A stretch of 64,000 bases of DNA, taken from the IMG/VR virus record IMGVR_UViG_3300023184_005208, positions 2,675 through 66,674 of that record; one strand, written 5' to 3'. Below the pieces are notes generated by a model. That model did no database searches. It was not told where the DNA came from and saw nothing but the letters and a program-made list of their open reading frames with translations. Within the stretch, counting starts at the first letter, position 1; each line of letters opens with the position of its first letter. Below are positions 24,214 through 62,353 of the stretch, piece after piece. A program made the translations under genes and the position numbers. Source of the stretch: a virus.

Positions 24214-24689
24214 GTAAAGTAATTAAACTAACAGAAAAAGACATCAACCTTTTAGTAAAAAAGGTTTTAAAAGAGCAAGAACAAGTAAACTATATGTTCT
24301 TCAGTAATTTAGAGCAAATAAAAAGACAATGTGAAATGATGTTGGAAATGGATGCAAACATGCTTGACGATATCATTCAGAATGGTCACGATTGGGCGGA
24401 TGACCATATTACCGAAGCCAAAACTAACATTGACCAAGTTTTTGATTTCTTCAAAAATAAAATGAGTGAAGAATCTGAATATGTTGATTATGAAGATGTA
24501 GAAGAAAATTCATTATCTGAAGGTAGAAAAAAAACAGGAACAAAACTTTGTGCAAGAGGTAAAGCAGCCGCTAAATCAAAATTTAAAGTTTGGCCCTCCG
24601 CATATGGAAATGGGTTTGCCGTTCAAGTATGTCAAGGCAAAATAAAAGGATTAGACGGAAAAAAACATTGTTCAGGCGCATATTGTTAA
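24210..24689 (+). CDS. hypothetical protein, probable head-packaged
   Basis: MSKVIKLTE..I..LVKKVLKE propeptide-like start; basic C-terminal Cys module. Confidence 0.7.
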   Translation: MSKVIKLTEKDINLLVKKVLKEQEQVNYMFFSNLEQIKRQCEMMLEMDANMLDDIIQNGHDWADDHITEAKTNIDQVFDFFKNKMSEESEYVDYEDVEENSLSEGRKKTGTKLCARGKAAAKSKFKVWPSAYGNGFAVQVCQGKIKGLDGKKHCSGAYC

Positions 24690-24716
24690 TTCAAGAAAGT
24701 TATTTATATTTGTGGT

Positions 24717-25118
24717 ATGAACCCAAATGAAAATTCAGGAATTTTATTTAGAATATTTTTATATCTAAAAAACAAATTTGACCCAAAACCTCCTGTTGCT
24801 GAAGAAGTCCAAACATGTACTCAAATTTTATTAAAGGTATTAGATTACGAGAATACCGAGTTAACATACACACCTGTATCCAATAAAAGATTTATTGTTA
24901 ATGATGAGAGAGGTATGGCAATTACTATTGAAAATAGAGTTGTTCACATCATTAATCACATATACAGTTATAGCATATACATGGAGGATAACGATTGTTA
25001 TGGAAAAATTTTGAAAAAATTTGACGAAGTTTCTGAAAAGAAAAAAAGTGAATTAGAAGAAAAAATTACAACTAATATCAAACATTCATTAAATAAAATT
25101 TTAGAGGGACTCTCTTAA
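24717..25118 (+). CDS. hypothetical protein
   Basis: 133-aa ORF behind TATATTTG (24705-24712). Confidence 0.65.
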   Translation: MNPNENSGILFRIFLYLKNKFDPKPPVAEEVQTCTQILLKVLDYENTELTYTPVSNKRFIVNDERGMAITIENRVVHIINHIYSYSIYMEDNDCYGKILKKFDEVSEKKKSELEEKITTNIKHSLNKILEGLS

Positions 25119-27088: not shown

Positions 27089-27469
27089 ATGGGAAAATTT
27101 TTAATATACTTGTTTGTTTTGTTATTGTCATTAAAATCATATGGACAAAAAGTAGTATATGTTCTTGGACAGGATGACAAATCAAAAATTACCATGATGA
27201 CATCTGAGGAACTTTGGATGTATGCTGAATGTATTACCGCAATCGGTAAAGAAAAAGAAATTCTCAATTGGGCATCTGAAGATATTTGTAATTTAATAAG
27301 AAAGAACCCAACACATTTCAATTCTCAAGTAGTATCCATTGATTCTAAACAACAAAGATTGAACATCAGACCTCAAAAAGGAGAAACAAACTTAGGTTCT
27401 GAAAAATTAGTTTTAATCATTAAACGTGATAAAAAGAATTCTATAATAAATTTGTTAGTACTTTATTGA
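27089..27469 (+). CDS. secreted hypothetical protein
   Basis: N-terminal signal peptide ending SYG/Q. Confidence 0.65.
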   Translation: MGKFLIYLFVLLLSLKSYGQKVVYVLGQDDKSKITMMTSEELWMYAECITAIGKEKEILNWASEDICNLIRKNPTHFNSQVVSIDSKQQRLNIRPQKGETNLGSEKLVLIIKRDKKNSIINLLVLY

Positions 27470-47315: not shown

Positions 47316-49328
47316 ATGAACGACTTAATGGACGACGACGACAAAATGATGAGTAAGAAACAAAAACAATCCGACAGTTCTACACCAGTTTTAGATAACT
47401 TTAGTAGAGACCTAAACAAACTTGCCGAGGCTGGTAAATTAGACCCAGTTATTGGTAGAGACCGAGAAATCATAAGAATCGCTCAGATTCTATCTCGTAG
47501 AAAAAAGAATAACCCTATTATCATAGGTGAACCTGGTTGTGGTAAGACCGCAATCGTAGAAGGTTTAGCAATGAAAATTGTAAGTGGAGAATGTCCAAAA
47601 AATCTTTTGGATAAAAGAATCGTAAACCTTGATTTAACTTCAGTAGTTGCTGGTACAAAATACCGTGGTCAATTTGAAGAAAGAATGAAAGTTATTATTG
47701 AAGAACTTCATGCAAATCCTAATATCATCATATTCATCGATGAAATCCATACCCTTGTTGGTTCAGGTAACTCTTCAGGTTCTATGGATGGTTCAAACAT
47801 TTTCAAACCAGCATTATCTCGTGGTGAACTTCAATGTATTGGAGCAACTACTCTTGATGAGTTCCGTAAGAATATTGAGAAGGACGGAGCATTAGAGCGT
47901 AGATTCCAAAAGGTAATTGTTGACCCGTCTTCGGTACAAGAGACAATCGAAATTCTAAAGAATGTTCGTGATAAGTATGAATCCTATCACAAAGTAACAT
48001 ACTCAGATGAGGTTATTGAGACTTGTGTTAAGTTGGCGGACAGATATATCACCGACCGTGAGTTCCCTGATAAAGCGTTTGATATTATGGATGAAGTTGG
48101 AGCTCGTATGCAAACAGAAGTTAAAATCCCTGAGGCTATTGAAGTATTGAAGAAAGCTGCGGCTGAAATCAAACAACAAAAGTTGGATGTGGTTAAAAAA
48201 CAAAACTACGAGCAAGCGGCTGAATTACGTGACAAGGAAAAGAAAGTGTTAACCAAACTTGAAAATGAAAAATCCAAGTTTGAAGAACAACAATCAAAAG
48301 ACAAGAAAATAATTTCTCTTGAAAACGTCTATGATGTTGTTTCTAACATGACTAAAATTCCTGTAAACAAAATGAGCCTTGATGATGCAAAGGCATTAAT
48401 CAACTTGGACAAAGAGTTAATTGGTAAGGTTATCGGTCAAGACGCCGCAGTTATCAAGATTGCAAAATCAATCAAGAGAAACCGTTTAGGTATCAAAGAC
48501 CCAAATCGTCCAATTGGTTCATTCGTGTTCTTAGGTTCAACAGGTGTCGGTAAGACTCACTTGGCCAAACAATTGGCTAAGGAGATGTTCGGTTCCGAAG
48601 ATTCACTTATCCGTGTGGATATGTCTGAATACCAAGAGAAACACAGCATTTCCAAATTGGTAGGAGCCCCTCCAGGTTATGTAGGATATGAAGAAGGTGG
48701 ACAATTAACCGAGAAAGTTAAGAACAAACCATACTCAGTTATCTTATTTGATGAGGTGGAAAAAGCGCACAAAGATGTGTTCACAATCTTACTTCAAATC
48801 TTAGATGATGGTTACGCAACCGATAGTTTAGGTAGAAAGATTAACTTCAAGAATACCTTAATTATCTTAACCTCAAACTTGGGTGTTAAGAAATTACAAG
48901 ACTTTGGTACAGGTATTGGATTCTCAAACAACACCTACGCTAACGAAGAAGCTAAGAAACAAGTATTGATGAAGGAGATGAAAAATTTCTTCTCTCCTGA
49001 GTTCCTAAATCGTATTGATGACACTATTGTCTTCAACTCGTTAACTCCTGAAGACATCAAAAAAATCACCGAAATCGAATTGAAGAAATTGGTGAATCGT
49101 TTAAATGATATTAAATACAAAATCACTTATGACGATACTTTAGTTGATTATTTAGCTAAAGTAGGATTTGATGAGATGTACGGAGCAAGACCGCTGAAGA
49201 GAGCAATCCAAGACAAAGTTGAGGACTTGTTATCTGAAGAAGTCTTAACAGGTAAAATGATTGAAGGTAAATCTTACTTCATTAAAGTAGACAATGAAGA
49301 GATTAAGGTTACCAAGAAAGGAAAGTAA
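47316..49328 (+). CDS. clpC: ClpC-like double-AAA+ ATPase lacking the N-terminal domain
   Basis: GEPGCGKT, FIDEIH, UVR-like QNYEQAAELRD, GSTGVGKT, LFDEVEKAH, IGF loop, GARPLKR. Confidence 0.9.
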   Translation: MNDLMDDDDKMMSKKQKQSDSSTPVLDNFSRDLNKLAEAGKLDPVIGRDREIIRIAQILSRRKKNNPIIIGEPGCGKTAIVEGLAMKIVSGECPKNLLDKRIVNLDLTSVVAGTKYRGQFEERMKVIIEELHANPNIIIFIDEIHTLVGSGNSSGSMDGSNIFKPALSRGELQCIGATTLDEFRKNIEKDGALERRFQKVIVDPSSVQETIEILKNVRDKYESYHKVTYSDEVIETCVKLADRYITDREFPDKAFDIMDEVGARMQTEVKIPEAIEVLKKAAAEIKQQKLDVVKKQNYEQAAELRDKEKKVLTKLENEKSKFEEQQSKDKKIISLENVYDVVSNMTKIPVNKMSLDDAKALINLDKELIGKVIGQDAAVIKIAKSIKRNRLGIKDPNRPIGSFVFLGSTGVGKTHLAKQLAKEMFGSEDSLIRVDMSEYQEKHSISKLVGAPPGYVGYEEGGQLTEKVKNKPYSVILFDEVEKAHKDVFTILLQILDDGYATDSLGRKINFKNTLIILTSNLGVKKLQDFGTGIGFSNNTYANEEAKKQVLMKEMKNFFSPEFLNRIDDTIVFNSLTPEDIKKITEIELKKLVNRLNDIKYKITYDDTLVDYLAKVGFDEMYGARPLKRAIQDKVEDLLSEEVLTGKMIEGKSYFIKVDNEEIKVTKKGK

Positions 49329-50859: not shown

Positions 50860-50891
50860 CAAAGATAGTGATATTATTCCGAATCACCAAA
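50860..50891 (-). promoter_or_regulatory. Bacteroidota sigmaA-type promoter
   Basis: Minus strand TTTG-N20-TATCTTTG upstream of ATG 50855. Confidence 0.7.
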
Positions 50892-52688
50892 TATATCAAA
50901 AAGTTCTGGTTGATACAAAAGATTTTGGAAACCTTCCTCACTTACTTTGATTCTTTTAGTCCCTTTAAACCTTGTATTAAGCTCAATAACAATTTTCATA
51001 TCATCTCTATCAAAATTAATAATTTTGAAGTTAATTTCTTTATCTTTTGGTAAAGTGTGCCAAGTATTAATTTTGTATTTAGACTCTATTCTTTTTCTAA
51101 AATCAAGAAAATCTTGAACATTATTGTCCGATTCCAATTTTTCTATAATGTTATCTAATTCACGACCTGCATTCCTATTAAAAGATATACTATCAAAATT
51201 TTTATCATCTTGGAATTCATAAGTGTTTTCATACCATCCACCCAATCTTCCTGTCCCATTAAATTCTACAATTCTATTGAACAGAGATATTGCATCTATT
51301 TTTTGGATATTCAACCTCACAGCCCACATTAATAGATTTGCTGCTGTGGTATTTAGTTCATCATACGGTCTTTTAATAGAAAACCCAATTGATTCAAAAT
51401 AATTTTGCATCTCTTTAGAAATACTTTCTTTAGCTGTGGTCATCATTTCATTTTCTTTCTCACTATGATATTCACCTAAAATATAATCCATTTGTTTTTC
51501 AAATAAATCCAATAATTTTTTAGACAATTCTATCCTATAATCCTCATCTTCTATATTATATTCTTTGTCAGGTATAATAATCGACGCAATTTGTTTAAGT
51601 TTTTCATTATTTTCTCTGTCAAATTCTGGATAGACACTATATCCGTCTTTGAAATCACTCTCAACTTGATACGAGTCCATAAAATCATAATCCGAGTAAT
51701 AGCTGTTTATCACGTTTAAAAACCAAACATCATCATCACTTAAATCCATCGCATTATAAACTTTTTCATCCTCTTTAAAGTCTATTGTTATAACACTTTG
51801 ACCTAATGGGTCTCCAACTCTAACATCCAAAATTGCATCATCAGAATCTTCTAAATCTCTTGATGAAACTTTCCCTCTAACAAAATCTCTTAATGTTTTC
51901 AAAAACTTACCAGCTCCCACCAATTCATCAATTAAATCATCCTGATTAGGAAATGATTCCCTTAAAGTCTCAATACTAAGTTCTTTATCAGCGGCATCAT
52001 AAACTACTTTTGTTCCGTCATTTTTATCAACATGTAATGCAAGTTTCAAACCAGTTTTTTTATTCAAGAAATAATATAAACTTCCTTTTGCAATATATTG
52101 TCTGAAATAATGAGATGATTCTTTTGTTGTGGTACACCATTTTGTATTGGCACCATAATAACAAGAAGCTGCATATGTGTTTGGTTTAACCACCAAAACA
52201 TCATCATCCTCATATAACTTTTCAGATTGATTCTTTAATTCTTTTTCAATCTCACTTTTGGTTTTTCTATTATCGACCACATCCATCAGTTCTTCCAAGA
52301 AAGCAGGATTAGTATATTGATTAATATCCTTAGGATTATCGGCAAGATTATTAATGTTATCAAAAACACCATGTCTTGCTCGATATTTGGTTTCCGTATT
52401 CCAAATATCATCAGAAGTAATCTTATTAATGTTATTATGAAACCAAGGAATTATCTGATAAAAGACATCGTAAATGGCGGTAGATTGGTCGTAATTTAAT
52501 CCACCATTAGGTCCACTTAATTCAGGAATAATCTTTTCTACTTGACGGGCAATATAATCTACATACTTGTACCCCGTAGGGTCAACATTTAACATTCGGT
52601 CAATAAAAGGACCATCATGCTCAAATTTACTTTTGAGCCTTTTGGCAATATCCTCTTTCTTACCTTCTATTAGTATTATCTTCGACAT
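50874..52688 (-). CDS. hypothetical protein (paralog of 57498..58988)
   Basis: ILIEGKKED start; KLYEDDD.LVVKP.TYAASCYYGANTKWCTT. Confidence 0.75.
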   Translation of the reverse strand: MSKIILIEGKKEDIAKRLKSKFEHDGPFIDRMLNVDPTGYKYVDYIARQVEKIIPELSGPNGGLNYDQSTAIYDVFYQIIPWFHNNINKITSDDIWNTETKYRARHGVFDNINNLADNPKDINQYTNPAFLEELMDVVDNRKTKSEIEKELKNQSEKLYEDDDVLVVKPNTYAASCYYGANTKWCTTTKESSHYFRQYIAKGSLYYFLNKKTGLKLALHVDKNDGTKVVYDAADKELSIETLRESFPNQDDLIDELVGAGKFLKTLRDFVRGKVSSRDLEDSDDAILDVRVGDPLGQSVITIDFKEDEKVYNAMDLSDDDVWFLNVINSYYSDYDFMDSYQVESDFKDGYSVYPEFDRENNEKLKQIASIIIPDKEYNIEDEDYRIELSKKLLDLFEKQMDYILGEYHSEKENEMMTTAKESISKEMQNYFESIGFSIKRPYDELNTTAANLLMWAVRLNIQKIDAISLFNRIVEFNGTGRLGGWYENTYEFQDDKNFDSISFNRNAGRELDNIIEKLESDNNVQDFLDFRKRIESKYKINTWHTLPKDKEINFKIINFDRDDMKIVIELNTRFKGTKRIKVSEEGFQNLLYQPELFDIFGDSE

Positions 52689-52726: not shown

Positions 52727-53488
52727 ATGAAAACAATAGAAGAATCAATTCAAATGGTCAAAAATTTTGACTTTAAGAATGCCACTCAAAAGGAAATTGA
52801 GGACGCTATTCCAACTTTCGGTATGAACAATGAGTTTCCGTTGGAGATGCCTAAAGAGTTTCAAGAGTATATGGGTTGGGGTATCAAAACATGGCAATAC
52901 CCAAGTCAAATTAGTAAACTCCTATATTTTTTAAAAGATAAAAACATCAACTCTTACTTAGAAATTGGATGTAGGTGGGGAGGAACTTTTATTCTTATAA
53001 ATGAACTTCTTAGAAAATACAACCCTTCATTAGAGGCTCATTGTGTAGACTATATTCCGGCATCAGATATTTTAGACATTTATCAAAACAAATTTGAAGG
53101 TAATAGATTTTACTATCATCAAATTGAGTCATTTTCACCATATCTATTCACGAGAATGTATGGAGATGTTAATGTCCCAAAACCTCAAACAGACTTAGTT
53201 TTTATTGATGGGTGTCATACATATTTCTGTATACAAGAAGATTATCACAGAGCACTATTCTTAGGCGCAAAATATATCATATTTCACGATATTGTTAGTT
53301 CGTCTTCGATTAGTTCTAAACTGTCTTGGGAGAATATCAAAAAGAAACATAAAAAAGTTTATGAATTCACAGACCAATATGAATCAGTAAATGGTACTTT
53401 TATGGGTATTGGTGTTATTGAAATTGATAAAGAGGACGATTGTTTTCCTCACTTCAATGAATATTATCCAAAGTTCTTTGGAGAATAA
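52727..53488 (+). CDS. class I SAM-dependent methyltransferase (Methyltransf_24-like)
   Basis: YLEIGC..GGT, DLVFIDG.HTY, IIFHDI. Confidence 0.85.
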   Translation: MKTIEESIQMVKNFDFKNATQKEIEDAIPTFGMNNEFPLEMPKEFQEYMGWGIKTWQYPSQISKLLYFLKDKNINSYLEIGCRWGGTFILINELLRKYNPSLEAHCVDYIPASDILDIYQNKFEGNRFYYHQIESFSPYLFTRMYGDVNVPKPQTDLVFIDGCHTYFCIQEDYHRALFLGAKYIIFHDIVSSSSISSKLSWENIKKKHKKVYEFTDQYESVNGTFMGIGVIEIDKEDDCFPHFNEYYPKFFGE

Positions 53489-53508
53489 CATATTTATTCT
53501 TATCTTTG
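53477..53508 (+). promoter_or_regulatory. Bacteroidota sigmaA-type promoter of tmRNA
   Basis: TTTG-N20-TATCTTTG. Confidence 0.7.
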
Positions 53509-53527: not shown

Positions 53528-53926
53528 GGGGGTGCCCTGGATTTGATTGCGATAATTAGGGTACGCAGGCACGTAGTCAGAATTCATCTATGACTTAAAT
53601 CTATGGTGAAAGATTTCAAATGGCAAAACTTTTGCTAAAATGGCTACTTTAGGTTTAACTAGAGAAGCTGTTGTTGTTGGTGCTTAATTAGTACAGAACA
53701 GCGTTCGGGTCGGTTAGGACATATAACCTAGGAACAGAAGTCCAATATAGGGGTCACAGGTCAGAGCTCCTTTAAAATAACTCTGAGACCAAGTTGTTTA
53801 CAGGTAAGTTTCTCACATATATCAAACCTGATATTTCGTAACATTGAGAACCGATGTTGTACTAAACGTGTAGTCTGTTTATGTTAATATTGTAAGACAA
53901 GGGTTCGATTCCCTTCACCTCCACCA
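53528..53926 (+). ncRNA. ssrA: tmRNA
   Basis: 5' GGGGGTG pairs with 3' CACCTCC-A-CCA (G3:U alanine identity); T-arm AAGGG-TTCGATT-CCCTT; internal tag ORF 53622-53687 ending GA-stop. Confidence 0.93.
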
Positions 53927-53935
53927 CTTTTTTAT

Positions 53936-54319
53936 ATGGGTACTGATTGTAATATATGTAGTAACAAATGTTTTGGAATACCAGGACATCACGGTAGTTG
54001 TTGTACGATTGAGGATAGAAATTATATCATCGGTCCTCACCCTGATGCTGACGAATTTATGGAAATTTTATCTAAAAAATTAGGTAGAGAAATTGAAAGG
54101 GAAGAAATATTTGTTGAATTTGAAGAAGGTAAAAATCTTTTTCCTGATAAATCTACTTGGCAAAATCCTGGTTCATATCCAGCATTTAGAGTTGATTTTT
54201 TCAACCCAAGAAAACCTTGTATATTCTATAATACAAAGATAAAGGCTTGTGGAATATACGACATTAGACCTCAAACTTGTAGAAATTATGAGTGTGAATA
54301 TTTGACTCAAAACACGTAA
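53936..54319 (+). CDS. YkgJ/CxxCxxCC putative Fe-S/zinc protein
   Basis: C..C...C......GSCC ... CIFY......CGIYDIRP.TCR.YEC. Confidence 0.85.
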   Translation: MGTDCNICSNKCFGIPGHHGSCCTIEDRNYIIGPHPDADEFMEILSKKLGREIEREEIFVEFEEGKNLFPDKSTWQNPGSYPAFRVDFFNPRKPCIFYNTKIKACGIYDIRPQTCRNYECEYLTQNT

Positions 54320-54396
54320 CAATTTGATTTGTTAATGTTTTATTAATATCTTTATAACAAATTGAAAATACTTATAGACAGGTGAAAAAATCTTTT

Positions 54397-54453
54397 ATGA
54401 ACTATTACCAAACAAAAACAACATATCAAAATTTTAATAATCTAGTCCCGTAG
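54397..54453 (+). CDS. putative leader peptide MNYYQTKTTYQNFNNLVP
   Basis: 18-codon ORF whose last codons and stop lie in the 5' arm of a terminator hairpin ahead of the receptor gene. Confidence 0.4.
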   Translation: MNYYQTKTTYQNFNNLVP

Positions 54454-54475
54454 GCCCCTGTCTTCGGGATTTTTT
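54445..54475 (+). terminator. terminator/attenuator hairpin in leader of TonB receptor
   Basis: GTCCCG-T-AGGC/loop/GTCT-T-CGGGAT followed by a T-run. Confidence 0.6.
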
Positions 54476-54501
54476 ATTTATAAACAACTAAACAAAAAAA
54501 C

Positions 54502-57051
54502 ATGAAAAAAACGGTAATTTTAACCTTAGGGTTAATGTTGACAGCGTTTTCATCCTTCGCACAAATTACAGGAAGGGTCGTTGACGCTACAACAAAAGAG
54601 GTATTGGCAGGTGCAACTGTTGGTACTGAAAAATCAAATGTTACAACTGGATTAGATGGAACATTTGAATTAAAAACTGTGAAAGCAGGTGAAAAACTTA
54701 ATGTATCTTTTATCGGATATAAGAACATTGTAATCACCGCAAAAGACGGAATTGTTATTGAATTATCTTCAACATCAATTGGTCTTAAGGAAGTATCAGT
54801 TATCGCTTCTTATGGTATTGACAGAAAAACACCAGCTGCTATCTCATCAGTAAAAGGTAGATACACTGTTGAAAATTTAGGTTCTCAAGAATTACCTGAA
54901 TTGTTAAAAATCACACCTTCGGCTTTTATTACGAAAGGTGGTGGTGGTGTTGGTGATTCTCGTATCAATATTAGAGGATTTGACCAAAAGAACGTTGCAA
55001 TTTTAATTAACGGTATTCCAGTAAACGATATGGAATCAGGTTGGGTTTATTTCTCAAACTGGGCAGGTATCGGTGATGCGTTAAAACAAATGCAAGTTCA
55101 AAGAGGTTTAGGAGCATCAAAATTAGCAATTCAATCAGTTGGTGGTACAATGAATATCATTACAAAAACAACTGATGCTGAAAAAGGAGCTTCATTCCAA
55201 CAATCTTTAACAGATTTTGGTTTAAGTAAATCAGTATTGTCTTATTCAACAGGTAACACTAAGAAAGGAGCATTTTCTTTTGTAGGTAGTACCACACAAG
55301 GTAATGGTTATGTTGAAGGTACTTACACAAAGGCTTATTCTTATTTCTTATCTTATGCTAAAGATTTAGGTTTAAATCATAAATTACAAATCATTGCATT
55401 AGGTGCACCTCAAGAACACGGACAACGTAGTTCTCGTTTAACACCCGCAGAATTTGACAAATATGGTGTAAAATACAATAAAGATTTGTATTTGTTAAAC
55501 GGTGAGTTGAAAAACATCAATATCAACTATTATCACAAACCAATTTTCCAAATTAATGATTATTGGACAATCAATAAAACAACAACATTAACAACATCTT
55601 TTTACGGTTCAATTGGACACGGTGGTGGTAGTGGTGCTATCGGTTCTTACGATGGTACTAAAGTTCTTAGAGACGCTCAAGGTCATTTAACAATGGACCC
55701 ACAAGTTGCTCTAAACGCAGCTTCTACAACTGGTTCTAAGTATGGTATTAGAAACTCAATCAACAATCATAGTTGGTATGGTGTATTATCTACATTAAAC
55801 AAAGATTTATCTAAAACATTAAACCTAACGTTAGGTGTTGATGGTAGAACTTATGTAGGAACTCACTTTAGAGAAATGAGAAATTTAATTGGTGGTTCTT
55901 ATTACAAAGATATATTCAATACTGCTGCAACAGTTGATGCAAATGCTAGTGATTTTATTAATATCAATAAAGTAACTCCAACTAACAATCGTATCGCTTA
56001 CGATAACGACGGTTTAGTTAAGTACGCAGGTACTTTTGGACAATTAGAATACTCTAAAGATAAATTATCAGCGTTCGTACAAGGTGCTATTTCTAACACA
56101 TCTTACCAAAGAGCTGATAGATACTACGCAAATGCAGTAGAACATTTATCTGAAAAAGTTAATATCACAGGATACAATTACAAAGGTGGTTTCAACTATA
56201 ACTTAACTGACAATCACAACGTATTTGTTAATGCTGGTCAATATAGTAGAGCACCTTATTTCAGTTTCATCTTCAACGGAGCTTCTCCTTCATCCGCAAC
56301 CGCAATCAATAGTGGTAACGCGGTGAATGATAACATCAAAAATGAACAAGCAACCGCAGTTGAGGTTGGTTATGGTTTCAGAAGTAAGTCGTTTAGAATT
56401 AAAGCTAACGCATATTACACTGATTTCAAAAATCGTTCTTTAACTTCTCCACTATTAACAAATGCTGATGGTACTCAATACAGAGCATTAATTGTTGGAC
56501 AAGGTGCAACACACAAAGGTGTTGAAATGGAAGCAGAATTAAAAGTATCTAAGAAATTAGATGTTAACGCATTTGCATCATTTGGTGATTGGAAATGGAA
56601 AGGAAACGCTTCTGCAACAATCCATGACGATATCAAAAATACAGATGTTAAAACATCAATCTTTTCTGACGGTTTATTCGTAGGTGACCAACCTCAAACA
56701 CAAGTAGGTGGTTACGCTAGATACCAATTAACTAAAAGAATAGATTTATCTGCAATTTATACTTTCAATGACAAGTATTACGCATACTATGACCCCACTT
56801 CAAGAACAAACGCAGCTGTAACAGCTCAACCTTATAAGTTGGATTCTTATGGTATCACTGATGCAAGAATTGGATATAAATGTAAAGTAGGTAAATTCCC
56901 AGTACACGTTCAATATCAAGTATACAACGTATTTGATACTAACTATTGGGCTGAAGCTAACGACGCTGGTGGTACATCAGTTGGTGTGTTAGGAACAGGA
57001 TACAAAGGTTGGGGTAGAAACTCTAACGTAAGTGTCAAAATTAACTTCTAA
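54502..57051 (+). CDS. TonB-dependent outer-membrane receptor (Bacteroidota type)
   Basis: Signal peptide ending FA/Q, CarboxypepD_reg-like domain (ITGRVVD...LAGATV...SFIGY), plug (INIRGF...LINGIP...GGTMNIITK), beta-barrel ending in Phe. Confidence 0.93.
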   Translation: MKKTVILTLGLMLTAFSSFAQITGRVVDATTKEVLAGATVGTEKSNVTTGLDGTFELKTVKAGEKLNVSFIGYKNIVITAKDGIVIELSSTSIGLKEVSVIASYGIDRKTPAAISSVKGRYTVENLGSQELPELLKITPSAFITKGGGGVGDSRINIRGFDQKNVAILINGIPVNDMESGWVYFSNWAGIGDALKQMQVQRGLGASKLAIQSVGGTMNIITKTTDAEKGASFQQSLTDFGLSKSVLSYSTGNTKKGAFSFVGSTTQGNGYVEGTYTKAYSYFLSYAKDLGLNHKLQIIALGAPQEHGQRSSRLTPAEFDKYGVKYNKDLYLLNGELKNININYYHKPIFQINDYWTINKTTTLTTSFYGSIGHGGGSGAIGSYDGTKVLRDAQGHLTMDPQVALNAASTTGSKYGIRNSINNHSWYGVLSTLNKDLSKTLNLTLGVDGRTYVGTHFREMRNLIGGSYYKDIFNTAATVDANASDFININKVTPTNNRIAYDNDGLVKYAGTFGQLEYSKDKLSAFVQGAISNTSYQRADRYYANAVEHLSEKVNITGYNYKGGFNYNLTDNHNVFVNAGQYSRAPYFSFIFNGASPSSATAINSGNAVNDNIKNEQATAVEVGYGFRSKSFRIKANAYYTDFKNRSLTSPLLTNADGTQYRALIVGQGATHKGVEMEAELKVSKKLDVNAFASFGDWKWKGNASATIHDDIKNTDVKTSIFSDGLFVGDQPQTQVGGYARYQLTKRIDLSAIYTFNDKYYAYYDPTSRTNAAVTAQPYKLDSYGITDARIGYKCKVGKFPVHVQYQVYNVFDTNYWAEANDAGGTSVGVLGTGYKGWGRNSNVSVKINF

Positions 57052-57072: not shown

Positions 57073-57102
57073 AAAACCCTCATCTTCAGATGGGGGTTTT
57101 TT
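57073..57102 (+). terminator. intrinsic terminator
   Basis: AAAACCCTCATCT-TC-AGATGGGGGTTTT-T-run. Confidence 0.85.
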
Positions 57103-57131
57103 TATCTCAAATTTTTACTATATTTGAGACA

Positions 57132-57482: not shown

Positions 57483-57497
57483 AAGGTATTTATGAAT

Positions 57498-58988
57498 ATG
57501 AAATTCATGGGTATCTTATTAAAGGAGGGTCGTAAAGAAGATTTAAAGAAAAAATATTCAACAAAGTTTAATGAAGAAGACTTAGACTTTATTTTGAATA
57601 TTTCCGATTTAAAAGATTTTAATCACAAGTACACTGATTTTGTATTAAAAAATACAGATGGAGATGGTGAATTAGATACTGATGAATTAGAACACCTTGT
57701 AGGTCTTATAAAAGATTTTGATAAATATTCAAGCCAATTTCCTAAGAAGGATATCAATCAATATGTATCATTAAATGAACTTGAAAAAGTAATTCTTTAC
57801 ATTAGGGGAAAAAACAAAGAAAAGGAATTAGAAGGTCAAGCAAAAAAGATTTACGAAAAAGGTGACTTTGTAGTTATTCAACCAAAAACTGAAGCCGCTT
57901 CTTGTAAATACGGTTCAAATACAAAGTGGTGTGTTACATCAAAAGGGTCAGGTCACTTTGGTAAATACACCGCAGGTCGTCAAAGATTATATTTCATAAT
58001 TAACAAAGCCAAGTCCACAAACAAAAATTACTCAAAAGTTGCAATTCATTTTGATGATGGTGGAGAACCAAGATATTGGGATTCTCAAGATTCGCCTATG
58101 AGTCAAAGAGAAGTTGATGTGTTTGAATACGCATTTTCCGATATGATTGAGTCAATTAAAAATGACTATAAAAAATATGCGGGGTCAATGACTGATAAGT
58201 TTTTAACTCAGGCGTTTGATTCTATAGGTGAAAATTCCGCAGAAAGTAGAAATTATTTGAATTCAACTTATAATTTAGCAACATATATTACAGGATTTCA
58301 AAATAACCATGGTTTGGGATTTGGTCATTCGGAAGCTCTTTTATCAATATCATTAAATTCATATGTTGGAGACAATAAATTAATTGACGCATATAGACTT
58401 TTTATTACGTACAAATCTAAAGATGAAAAAACATTTACCGCAAGTATAGGATTTATGGGTGATGATGATGTAAAAGGAGATGACATTGAGGACCTTGGTC
58501 TTGAAAATTGGGGAATAGATGTGACATATAATATTGGTAGAACTCCATTAGAAACCGCTGAAGGTGTTAGAAGACACATTGCACAAAGAGTGTTGGACCA
58601 TATCGTAACTAACCCTCAACTTGTTCAAAAGATTGCAGGAACATCCAAAGTTTGGAGACCGAAATCAGGATATACCTTCGGGAAAAACAAAGGGTTAATT
58701 AAAAAATTAGTTGATTATTTAGATACGGGTGCAATAGGTACTAAGTTAGACTTTATGGAATCCATAGGAAAATTTAAAACAAAAATTGTTAACGGTAAAA
58801 AACTATATGCTCACCAAGGTAGTGATAATTACTTACCATCAGTTAATTTTAGAGGCCAATATTCAACGTTCTTTGCCGCAGCGAAATTAGCTGGAATTCT
58901 AGGATATAGGAAAGTCGGTAAAGAATTTTTGTTAGTTAAAGGTCCTAATTTTGATGCTTTTAAATCCGGTGAACTTAAAGCTCTTTAG
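57498..58988 (+). CDS. hypothetical protein (paralog of 50874..52688)
   Basis: LLKEGRKED start; KDINQY; KIYEKGD.VVIQP.TEAASCKYGSNTKWCVT. Confidence 0.75.
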   Translation: MKFMGILLKEGRKEDLKKKYSTKFNEEDLDFILNISDLKDFNHKYTDFVLKNTDGDGELDTDELEHLVGLIKDFDKYSSQFPKKDINQYVSLNELEKVILYIRGKNKEKELEGQAKKIYEKGDFVVIQPKTEAASCKYGSNTKWCVTSKGSGHFGKYTAGRQRLYFIINKAKSTNKNYSKVAIHFDDGGEPRYWDSQDSPMSQREVDVFEYAFSDMIESIKNDYKKYAGSMTDKFLTQAFDSIGENSAESRNYLNSTYNLATYITGFQNNHGLGFGHSEALLSISLNSYVGDNKLIDAYRLFITYKSKDEKTFTASIGFMGDDDVKGDDIEDLGLENWGIDVTYNIGRTPLETAEGVRRHIAQRVLDHIVTNPQLVQKIAGTSKVWRPKSGYTFGKNKGLIKKLVDYLDTGAIGTKLDFMESIGKFKTKIVNGKKLYAHQGSDNYLPSVNFRGQYSTFFAAAKLAGILGYRKVGKEFLLVKGPNFDAFKSGELKAL

Positions 58989-59199: not shown

Positions 59200-59278
59200 C
59201 TTCCATGTTCCCTCGTTTAAATTTTAGGTCAAAAATTGACATTGTAATATTCAAATAAATATCATATCTTTGTATTCT

Positions 59279-59899
59279 ATGAAAGTTATATTTTTAGATA
59301 ATGATGGAGTAATCTGTTTATCAAATAATTGGGGGGGTCGTACAAAAAAATGGGCGAAACATCGCTCCGCAAATCCTGAGTCAAGTAATTTACTCAGAGA
59401 AGCTCCCGTTGATGTAAGATTTGATGATTTTGATAAGAAATCTATTAAAATTTTAAATGAAATCTTAGAAGAAACAGGAGCAGAGATTGTAGTATCTTCT
59501 GATTGGAGATTTCATGCAACTTTAGAAGAATTAGGTGAATATTACGAATCCCAAGGAATCTCAAAAAAACCAATCGGATTTACCAAAAAGTTAGGCCAAT
59601 TTCAAAGACCTGAAAACTTCCCATGGTCTCGTCAGTGGGATTTAGAACAGTCAAGGTCCTTAGAGATACTTCAATACCTTAAAGACAATCCAGAGGTCAC
59701 AGAATGGGTTGCAGTAGATGATTTGAATATGGGAATACCACAGACTCACGAGAGTTGGGGTGAAATGGAAATGGATTGGGGTTTGACCAATTTTGTACTC
59801 ACACCAAAAAGTAGTGAAGGGATTAAACAAACAGGAATTAAAGATAAGATTATAAAAATTTTAAACGATGTCAAAGATAACGACAAAGGTGATAGTTAA
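59279..59899 (+). CDS. HAD domain protein (Swiss Army Knife RNA-repair type)
   Basis: IFLDNDGV, IVVSSDWR, WVAVDD; preceded by TATCTTTG (59265-59272). Confidence 0.8.
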   Translation: MKVIFLDNDGVICLSNNWGGRTKKWAKHRSANPESSNLLREAPVDVRFDDFDKKSIKILNEILEETGAEIVVSSDWRFHATLEELGEYYESQGISKKPIGFTKKLGQFQRPENFPWSRQWDLEQSRSLEILQYLKDNPEVTEWVAVDDLNMGIPQTHESWGEMEMDWGLTNFVLTPKSSEGIKQTGIKDKIIKILNDVKDNDKGDS

Positions 59900-60059
59900 G
59901 AATAGATATTCAGGAGTTGCTCCTGAAGGATTTGTTTTACTCCATGAAAAGACAATTCAAGATTTACAAAATTTTGAAATTTGGAAAGAGTGGAAAAATA
60001 ATATTATTGAATTAGATTTAAATAACAGAATTGAGATGGAAGAAAGTAAAAAATCTTAA
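59868..60059 (+). CDS. small hypothetical protein
   Basis: 63-aa ORF; FEIWKEWK. Confidence 0.5.
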   Translation: MSKITTKVIVKNRYSGVAPEGFVLLHEKTIQDLQNFEIWKEWKNNIIELDLNNRIEMEESKKS

Positions 60060-60161
60060 GTTTCAAAACCGGTCAAACTGGCGGTAATCGTCTGCAGCGA
60101 TGAAAGGAAGTGCACTCCGAGGTATAACATCCCGTCAGTCCCTGACCACATTAAAAATATT

Positions 60162-60344
60162 ATGAAAAGATTATACAGACAAAACGGTAACATGATTGGT
60201 GGTGTTTGTGGTGGTATTGCTAATTTTGCCGAATTAGATAAGACAATCGTTAGATTGTTATTTGCAGCATTAATTTTTACCCCATTCCCAATCATCACAA
60301 TCTACATCCTTGCATGGATTATAACCCCATCAGAAAAAATATGA
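60162..60344 (+). CDS. PspC-domain protein
   Basis: MKRLYR....MIGGVCGGIA......TIVRLLF.......IYILAWIITP. Confidence 0.9.
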   Translation: MKRLYRQNGNMIGGVCGGIANFAELDKTIVRLLFAALIFTPFPIITIYILAWIITPSEKI

Positions 60345-60727
60345 AAGTAACAAAAAACCCCACCTTATTTGTGGACATAGACGGTACTATTGTAAAGTAC
60401 CGTAAATTTAGTGAATTAGCCACAGCCGTATTGACACCCATTCAAGATGTAATTGATTATGTTAATGACCATTATAATTCAGGTTCCGTGATAATTATTA
60501 CTACAGCACGTCCTTCGAGTTATGAATTGATGACCAAACAAGAACTTGAAAAGTTAGGTGTTAAGTATCATCAGATAGTTATGGATTGTGGAAGGGGTAC
60601 AAGAGTCGTTTTAAACGATATGGACCCTGAGAATCCAATTGAAAGGGCTGTTGGAATAAACTTTATTAGAGATGGTGGATTCGAACCAATAGGTGGAGTC
60701 CCTGAGATTAAATCGTATGAGTTATAA
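60341..60727 (+). CDS. small HAD-superfamily phosphatase
   Basis: FVDIDGTI, IITTAR, LND. Confidence 0.8.
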   Translation: MKVTKNPTLFVDIDGTIVKYRKFSELATAVLTPIQDVIDYVNDHYNSGSVIIITTARPSSYELMTKQELEKLGVKYHQIVMDCGRGTRVVLNDMDPENPIERAVGINFIRDGGFEPIGGVPEIKSYEL

Positions 60728-61102: not shown

Positions 61103-62353
61103 ATGAATGAAGATATTAAAGATATAATTCAATCTTTTGATTTAATGCTTGGTGATAATAAATCTGTTGTTAACGAAGTCGCTCTTATTTCACCATTAGA
61201 CCAAACATCAGTTAATTCAGGATTCGGTGCAAGGTGGGGTAAAACACATAATGGTGTTGATTTGGCCGCCAATGCAACAGAGGTTAAATCACCCGCAGAT
61301 GGTGTTGTAGAAGTTGGTGCAATCAAAAATGACGATTGTGGCGGTACAATTATTATTAATCACGCTGGTGGATTCAAAACAGGTTTTTGCCACATGCAAA
61401 AAATTAGTGTAAATCCAGGTGATAACGTTAAACAAGGAGATGTTATAGGTATTAGTGGTGGAGGTAAAAATGATGTCGGACATGGTAGAAGCGATGGCAG
61501 ACATTTACATTTCACACTTAGAAAAGATGGTAAGTTAGTTAATCCAATAGACTATATCGATAAGAGTGGTGTAATCATGACAGGTGACGTTCCTCAATCA
61601 ACAACAAGTGGTGATACTACAAATGATGGTACAAATGATAGTAATGCAACAGCATCAAAAACCAAAAAAAATAGTGATGATGTTTTTGGTGTTAGAAATT
61701 TAGACCCTAATGATATAATGGTTAAAAAGGCTAGAGAAATGGCAACCCAATTCGGACTTAGCGAACAAAAAATTTACGGTACTTTTGGAGATAGATTATC
61801 AGATAGATTTGGTAGTATTATCATACCAGCAAGAAATAATAGTGAAATAAAATCCCCTGTGGACGGAATTATTTATGTTGGACATGCAGATTCTAACTGT
61901 AAGAACCAAGTATCAATTGAACATAATATAGAGGGCAAAAGATATTTCTTACAGTTTTGTAATATCACAAAACCTAACATTAAAAATGGTAGAGCAATAT
62001 CTAAAGGAGCATCTTTAGGAAAAACATCTGATGATGTTAAAGTGTCGTTATTTGATTCAGGGTGGAATAGAAAAGATTTGTTATCAATGATGAATAAAGA
62101 AATTAAACCAACTGTTAAATCAACCGTTAAATCTAAAAAAGAAAAAAATAAAAAAGAAAAAAATAAAAAAGAACCGATGAAATACTATGACCCCACAATA
62201 CCATTTATCTTTAAAAAAATACATGATATGATTCCATCTATGACTAAAAATAAAAAAGATGAGGAACCAAAAATTTCAAATTTCTTTAGTAAATACGGAC
62301 TAACTGGAAAAAAAATTGACGAAAACATAGAAAGAATCAAAAAGTTATTATAA
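61103..62353 (+). CDS. M23-family peptidase (one intact and one degenerate M23 domain)
   Basis: HNGVD, CHM, GRHLHF; second SPVDG...IEH domain lacks the Zn ligands. Confidence 0.85.
   Translation: MNEDIKDIIQSFDLMLGDNKSVVNEVALISPLDQTSVNSGFGARWGKTHNGVDLAANATEVKSPADGVVEVGAIKNDDCGGTIIINHAGGFKTGFCHMQKISVNPGDNVKQGDVIGISGGGKNDVGHGRSDGRHLHFTLRKDGKLVNPIDYIDKSGVIMTGDVPQSTTSGDTTNDGTNDSNATASKTKKNSDDVFGVRNLDPNDIMVKKAREMATQFGLSEQKIYGTFGDRLSDRFGSIIIPARNNSEIKSPVDGIIYVGHADSNCKNQVSIEHNIEGKRYFLQFCNITKPNIKNGRAISKGASLGKTSDDVKVSLFDSGWNRKDLLSMMNKEIKPTVKSTVKSKKEKNKKEKNKKEPMKYYDPTIPFIFKKIHDMIPSMTKNKKDEEPKISNFFSKYGLTGKKIDENIERIKKLL

Follow-up and report, generated by a model that had tools for sequence, protein, structure and literature searches.

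The gene for the TonB-dependent receptor in this phage fragment is preceded by a leader that contains an intrinsic terminator and a short open reading frame (ORF) overlapping it, and both elements recur in relatives of the locus. We tentatively favor a reading in which this leader terminator is passed by polymerases coming from a probable promoter at positions 54323–54354, with the ribosome that terminates on the short ORF as the likeliest aid to their passage. The leader looks like one of an ordinary attenuator type, and not like the specific switch that had first been proposed for it. As it stands, the finding is ordinary and modest, and brings no surprise. If real, it would give a first outline of the way in which a large phage sets the amount or timing of the host-like outer-membrane transporter that it carries, and would add a leader ORF–terminator unit from a phylum without Shine–Dalgarno-paired starts, in which attenuators are little studied; clues to leader-peptide attenuators in flavobacterial amino-acid operons are reported in PMC9723704.

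Genomic setting and layout of the leader

The window (the whole stretch of 64,000 nt analyzed here, to which all unlabeled positions refer) makes up most of a 66.7-kb IMG/VR virus record that was judged 16% complete, has a GC content of ~32%, and is a fragment of a large Bacteroidota-type phage from freshwater. A phage-borne tmRNA gene (53528–53926, +; Rfam RF00023, 91.1 bits versus a gathering score of 47) is followed by a YkgJ-like ORF of 127 aa with a CxxCxxCC domain (53936–54319, +; Pfam PF03692, 24.1 bits versus a cut-off of 23) and, after a spacer of 182 nt from the ykgJ-like stop codon to the ATG, by the receptor gene (54502–57051, +), whose 849-aa product contains CarboxypepD_reg-like, Plug, and barrel domains in Pfam. 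A terminator is located 3′ of the receptor gene (57075–57103, +), and three tRNAs are also encoded in the window. Among cultured phages, the DNA of the leader and of the tmRNA region was unmatched, and the receptor reached an identity of at most 36%. Assembled contigs from two public runs of RNA libraries represent mainly the tmRNA, which is heavily covered, and conserved parts of the receptor, and are, like the contigs from two DNA runs, uninformative on transcript ends and read-through; one RNA-library contig spans 54224–54382. Several further features were observed around the locus. The ykgJ-like ORF begins only 10 nt past the tmRNA 3′ end, with a T6 run in between. The tmRNA–receptor block is flanked by proteins of 604 aa (50874–52688, −) and 498 aa (57492–58988, +) of unknown function, both of which match PHROG families 17056 and 28193 at residues ~120–250 and are likely paralogues. 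Near the receptor (47316–49328, 59270–60727, and 61103–62353), a ClpB-like double AAA+ protein, two HAD/PNKP-type RNA-repair-like phosphatase ORFs, and an M23 peptidase are encoded.

Directly past the ykgJ-like gene lies a candidate Bacteroidota sigma-A promoter (54323–54354, +), a relaxed motif match composed of a −33 TTTG, a 20-nt spacer, and the −7 box TATCTTTA, in which the last base is A instead of G. Its spacing and TATCTTT core equal those of the strict matches before the tmRNA and genes 27089 and 50855 (−), and transcription from it is predicted to start at ~54359. The strict motif (TTTG-N19–21-TAnnTTTG) has eight matches in the window, five of them just upstream of the tmRNA (53477–53508, +, for the tmRNA itself) or of genes; the relaxed form has 26 matches, many within genes. 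When TTG is taken as the −33 element, extra matches appear 4–6 nt before the ATGs at 24717 and 59279. The Bacteroidota −7 box is located at −12 to −5 according to PMC9723704, and genes with a 4-nt gap between box and ATG would therefore be leaderless. At 24683–24719 (+) and 50890–50853 (−), the −7 boxes stop exactly 4 nt before the ATG (TATATTTG or TATCTTTG, TGGT, ATG), an arrangement that would imply leaderless mRNAs for the 133-aa and 280-aa genes concerned.

The putative intrinsic terminator (54444–54475, +) was folded with RNAfold into an outer stem of seven pairs (54444–54450 with 54465–54471), a 1 × 1 mismatch, an inner stem of four pairs (54452–54455 with 54460–54463), and a 4-nt loop, with an energy of −12.5 to −13.1 kcal/mol (−13.1 kcal/mol on its own). 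The first-pass annotation had described a hairpin of TCCCG (54446–54450) and CGGGA (54465–54469) with a T-run, 26 nt before the receptor ATG (54502); all of these are present, the T-run being T6 (54470–54475), and the hairpin is larger than described by virtue of its 7 + 4 pairs. A GC-rich hairpin directly before a T-run on the transcribed strand is what is predicted at 54444–54475, as for an intrinsic terminator, and the whole 149-nt leader has a folding z of −2.0. Gene ends in the window are marked by short GC-rich hairpins and T-runs, and the element is of the same style. The six other intergenic terminators that follow an ORF of at least 70 aa start 2–23 nt past its stop codon; the hairpin at 54444 starts 125 nt past the ykgJ stop codon, yet overlaps the stop codon of the short ORF. 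A further hairpin with a T-run (63067–63035, −) is located ~300 nt beyond a tRNA gene. As a separate observation, one DNA run contains a relative whose contig meets the window sequence at 54466 and, before this position, carries the 5′ half of a hairpin with a different inner stem; it is a natural variant in which the structure is kept and the sequence changed.

The short ORF, predicted at 54397–54453 (+), encodes 18 codons (MNYYQTKTTYQNFNNLVP) followed by TAG (54451–54453), and ends inside the 5′ arm of the terminator just as had been claimed for it, with the stop codon beginning 7 nt into the hairpin. The ORF would be five codons longer if read from an in-frame GTG at 54382. The bases before its ATG are TTTT, at a place where most genes of the window have an A-rich context, a point that, like the relaxed form of the promoter match, counts against the favored reading. 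The probable order of the leader is a host-type promoter (start at ~54359), a 38-nt untranslated stretch, the 18-codon ORF, the intrinsic terminator, 26 A-rich nt, and the receptor ATG. Since no sigma-A promoter motif follows the terminator, we infer that the receptor mRNA is made by polymerases reading through it; judged from these motifs, read-through of the leader terminator is the most likely source of receptor transcripts.

Recurrence of the hairpin and short ORF in receptor relatives

Relatives of the receptor were drawn from viral contigs, genomes, and metagenomes, in which 242 loci had a tblastn match; an upstream hairpin and T-run could be scored in 217 of them and in the window (218 in total). 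Sixty of the 218 loci have a hairpin and T-run within 110 nt at −6 kcal/mol or better, and most receptor-upstream hairpins come directly after a long upstream ORF. A tree of 18 chosen receptors contains a fully supported phage clade of seven members, in which L006 branches first, followed by L005 and L178, and then by the group (window, (L110, (L003, L004))). Four of the seven (window, L003, L006, and L178) have a hairpin and T-run starting 30–42 nt upstream of the receptor ATG, with energies of −12.4 to −15.4 kcal/mol; these four span the deepest split of the clade, and their upstream genes differ.

At the foot of the hairpin, a short ORF of 13–24 codons ends in three of these four members. 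The window has its hairpin 32 nt upstream of the ATG, with the ykgJ-like gene upstream and the 18-codon foot ORF; L003 has it 42 nt upstream, with a 60-aa PspC-like ORF upstream and a foot ORF of 24 codons (15 from the second ATG); and L006 has it 30 nt upstream, with a divergent upstream gene and a foot ORF of 13 codons. In L178 (hairpin 38 nt upstream), the foot is occupied by an ordinary 60-aa ORF. Hairpin and foot ORF are both absent from L004 and L005, in which the upstream gene reaches within 35–55 nt of the ATG, and from L110, in which the upstream gene is divergent; the leader is therefore dispensable, and its absence from L004, the sister of L003, means that it is easily lost. Beyond this clade, a 15-codon ORF and a hairpin follow a divergent gene in L106, a member of another clade, and L100/L180 have a 34-codon ORF running through the hairpin. 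The stop codon of the short ORF lies 6 nt (L006), 9 nt (L003), or 16 nt (L106) before the hairpin, and past the hairpin in L100. Leader alignment with RNAalifold among the relatives gave no predicted pairs, the leaders being too divergent, and hence no formal count of covariation.

The probability of such an ORF arising by chance was estimated from shuffled sequences. In shuffles of the window, an ATG-initiated ORF of at least 13 codons ends near the hairpin in 21% of cases, or in 36% under a wider criterion, and the 18-codon ORF alone is therefore not unusual. Per-locus shuffles gave 8–24% for an ORF of at least 13 codons near the hairpin, and 19–38% under the wider criterion that admits L100. 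All five hairpins that are set apart from a long upstream gene have a short ORF; the product of the per-locus chances is 0.0017, for a criterion set after looking, with L100/L180 (identical results) counted once and with window, L003, and L006 sharing descent.

The main rival to a ribosome-aided leader terminator is that the terminator is a plain one, leaks constitutively, and shields the receptor gene against transcription from the tmRNA, ykgJ, and leader promoters. The short ORF would then either be incidental or form a micro-gene of its own, to which the terminator belongs, and nothing would be sensed; we regard this as possible, if somewhat doubtful. Terminators are found 0–35 nt before the next ATG elsewhere in the window, at 27463 (−), 32366 (−), 61103, and 62387 (−), and a hairpin with a T-run at −8 kcal/mol or better lies within 60 nt of the receptor in 12 of 76 viral, 9 of 74 genome, and 20 of 67 metagenome loci, usually directly after a long ORF. 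The 60-aa ORF that takes the position of the short ORF in L178 is consistent with a simple arrangement of gene and terminator and counts against an attenuator, as does the lack of the leader in three of the seven clade members, and each short ORF is compatible with chance when taken singly (8–38% of shuffles). Since a stop codon near a hairpin is the normal layout of gene and terminator, the geometry itself is not diagnostic. A plain terminator is, however, at odds with the gap of 125 nt from the ykgJ stop codon, which is an outlier against the 2–23 nt seen elsewhere, and with the promoter-like site inside that gap. It also leaves unexplained why the hairpin is kept in L006 and L106, where the upstream gene is divergent and the hairpin therefore cannot terminate it, and why short ORFs occur at every one of the stand-apart hairpins.

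The divergent upstream genes of L006 and L106 likewise weaken the alternative put forward in the first-pass annotation itself, that the hairpin simply ends the ykgJ transcript and the receptor has a separate downstream promoter, and so does the outcome of the motif scan, in which no TAnnTTT (−7) box was found in the A-rich 26-nt stretch from the T-run to the receptor ATG (54476–54501, +). A related alternative is a promoter of a kind not recognized by the motif, for example for a phage RNA polymerase, located in or just after the T-run, with the hairpin only ending upstream transcripts. The T-run and the A-rich stretch, ending with TAAAC or similar, are alike in all seven clade members including the hairpin-less L004 and L005, as such a promoter would predict; however, an A-rich translation start region, which is typical of Bacteroidota, accounts for this conservation equally well. 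TATAAAC, considered as a phage promoter motif, was rejected, with 12 occurrences in the window on both strands and only this one at a gene start. We therefore regard a promoter at this place, which the −7 box scan also speaks against, as very unlikely.

Some observations on more distant or adjoining loci may be recorded here. The leader of L003 is preceded by the 60-aa PspC-like ORF (L003 2633–2815), which is of a small membrane type, and in the window an ORF ending just before 60314 has a similar C-terminal sequence (~60250–60313). In the L152–L177 group, a distant metagenome clade whose receptor is 33–36% identical to that of the window, a near-identical hairpin is kept (for example, L155 2941–3001), 1–23 nt past an upstream ORF of ~300 aa and 17–21 nt before the receptor ATG; it is another terminator pressed against a receptor gene. 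In L108 (1–120) and L142 (2600–2720), a tandem 8-nt unit (TGAAACAC) is present upstream of the receptor homologue.

Short ORF and proposed read-through of the terminator

In the favored reading, that of a leader terminator passed with the aid of the ribosome, the hairpin would be an attenuator by which expression of the receptor is lowered or gated and, with less support, the short ORF would be translated. Since its stop codon is inside the 5′ arm, this arm and the loop would be covered by a ribosome that completes the ORF; when close behind the polymerase, such a ribosome could thereby prevent the hairpin from forming and favor read-through. Slow or absent translation of the short ORF would lead to termination, and no antiterminator helix would be needed for read-through of this kind.

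The peptides encoded by the short ORFs have only a loose likeness, M-x-Y-Y near the start and Y-x-N-F later. Examined for a cluster of regulatory codons, they contain Tyr at 13 of 66 residues versus 5.2 expected, in a post hoc test and for an amino acid with no known link to a TonB receptor; Tyr and Asn together account for 24 of the 66 residues, all encoded by NAY codons. The second ATG of the L003 ORF lies 4 nt past the end of a promoter match, the same gap as in window genes 24717 and 50855 (−), which would imply a leaderless mRNA for the 15-codon form. This 4-nt gap, the Tyr enrichment, and the recurrence of the ORF are suggestive of its translation. In a stronger version, a clade of large freshwater Bacteroidota phages would share a genuine leader peptide, conserved and rich in Tyr and Asn, as the product of the short ORF, and the speed of its decoding would set read-through into the receptor gene. 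This version is in our estimate very improbable; if true, it would tie transporter production to the translation state of the host, for example to the charging or modification of NAY-reading tRNAs. A queuosine link to the NAY-rich peptide was considered and dropped, as no TGT-family gene occurs in five related phage records, all of which are fragments.

The layout of promoter, ~115 nt, terminator, and gene also suits a unit that produces a ~115-nt short RNA, where a phage-made factor lets the polymerase pass at a set time of infection, or where the RNA itself acts as a small RNA. The lambda Q protein acts at the terminator after PR′, and large phages time their gene expression. Such a short RNA or phage factor is nevertheless an unlikely explanation: neither a candidate factor nor a conserved RNA element came to light, the leaders are barely alignable between relatives, and the 66.7-kb record contains no second copy of the leader.

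Proposed antiterminator pairing and known attenuators

The first-pass interpretation of the leader is partly supported. Its general claim that an attenuator controls the receptor agrees with the presence of a terminator between the promoter-like site and the receptor gene and with the recurrence of hairpin and short ORF, whereas the antiterminator, the Pro-stop ending, and a ligand-binding RNA, on which the specific switch was built, are unsupported. In that switch, AGACAGG (54376–54382, +), the proposed antiterminator arm, would pair with CCTGTCT (54457–54463) to the exclusion of the terminator, the choice being set by ribosome arrest at the Pro-stop or by a ligand. The two segments are indeed exact complements, and chance seldom yields a perfect complement of at least 7 nt between the hairpin and the 88-nt leader, such a complement having arisen in 15 of 2000 dinucleotide shuffles. 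The AGACAGG element is present in the window only, however, and the pairing that conservation would require is lost in the relatives: the longest complement is 4 nt in L003, L006, L106, and L100, a length reached by 74–100% of shuffles, and the AGACAGG stretch is replaced in L006, whose hairpin aligns with that of the window.

The fold energies do not favor the pairing either. With the long-range pairing forced, the RNA reaches −13.1 kcal/mol, 6.3 kcal/mol worse than the terminator fold (−19.4 kcal/mol), and the pair probability is 0.0007. Only before the 3′ outer arm has been transcribed does the pairing give the fold of lowest energy, at −8.4 to −8.7 kcal/mol for RNA ending at 54463–54464; RNA ending at 54455, before CCTGTCT emerges, folds at −6.6 kcal/mol. 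The leader was said not to resemble the TPP, cobalamin, or SAM riboswitch consensus, and this holds, an Rfam scan of the window at gathering scores having matched only the tmRNA and tRNAs; a permissive Rfam scan of 54250–54560 gave only sub-threshold matches of 12–25 bits with best E-values of 0.14–0.4. The expected conservation of a Val-Pro-stop ending was not borne out, the endings being VP, YE, EK, and IS in the window, L003, L006, and L106, respectively, with Pro-stop confined to the window; the Pro codon is most simply a by-product of the stem, that is, the GC-rich 5′ arm read in frame. Altogether, the switch as proposed has very little probability in our judgment.

TnaC, an arrest peptide with conserved arrest residues and a Pro-stop, shares with the window a Pro codon directly before the stop codon. 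It differs from the present peptides in that their ending is unconserved among relatives, that Trp and Asp are lacking and the Pro codon is part of a GC-rich stem, and that termination is intrinsic here and not Rho-dependent. The second precedent invoked, CruR, is not comparable as described in PMC9426467. There, an upstream ORF precedes the gene for the TonB-dependent transporter bfrG in Bordetella and transcription terminates between the two, a layout shared with the present locus; CruR, however, belongs to the DUF2946 proteins and has at least 142 residues, a signal peptide, a CXXC motif, a RAPP arrest motif at residues 139–142, and Rho-dependent termination, in contrast to an 18-residue peptide without Cys or RAPP and an intrinsic terminator.

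Attenuators of the trp/his type have in common with the leader a promoter-proximal short ORF followed by an intrinsic terminator before a structural gene, the promoter here being a relaxed match. They differ in that the leader has no conserved antiterminator helix and no run of codons linked to the product, and that it precedes a transporter gene in a phage and not a biosynthetic operon. In pyrBI-type attenuation, the leader ORF overlaps the terminator, and the ribosome translating it keeps the hairpin from forming. The present leaders differ from this type in having no evident U-rich pause region or nucleotide-sensing logic, and in the position of the stop codon 9–16 nt before the hairpin in L003 and L106; they share with it a short ORF that ends inside the hairpin (window) or runs through it (L100), an arrangement that requires no antiterminator.
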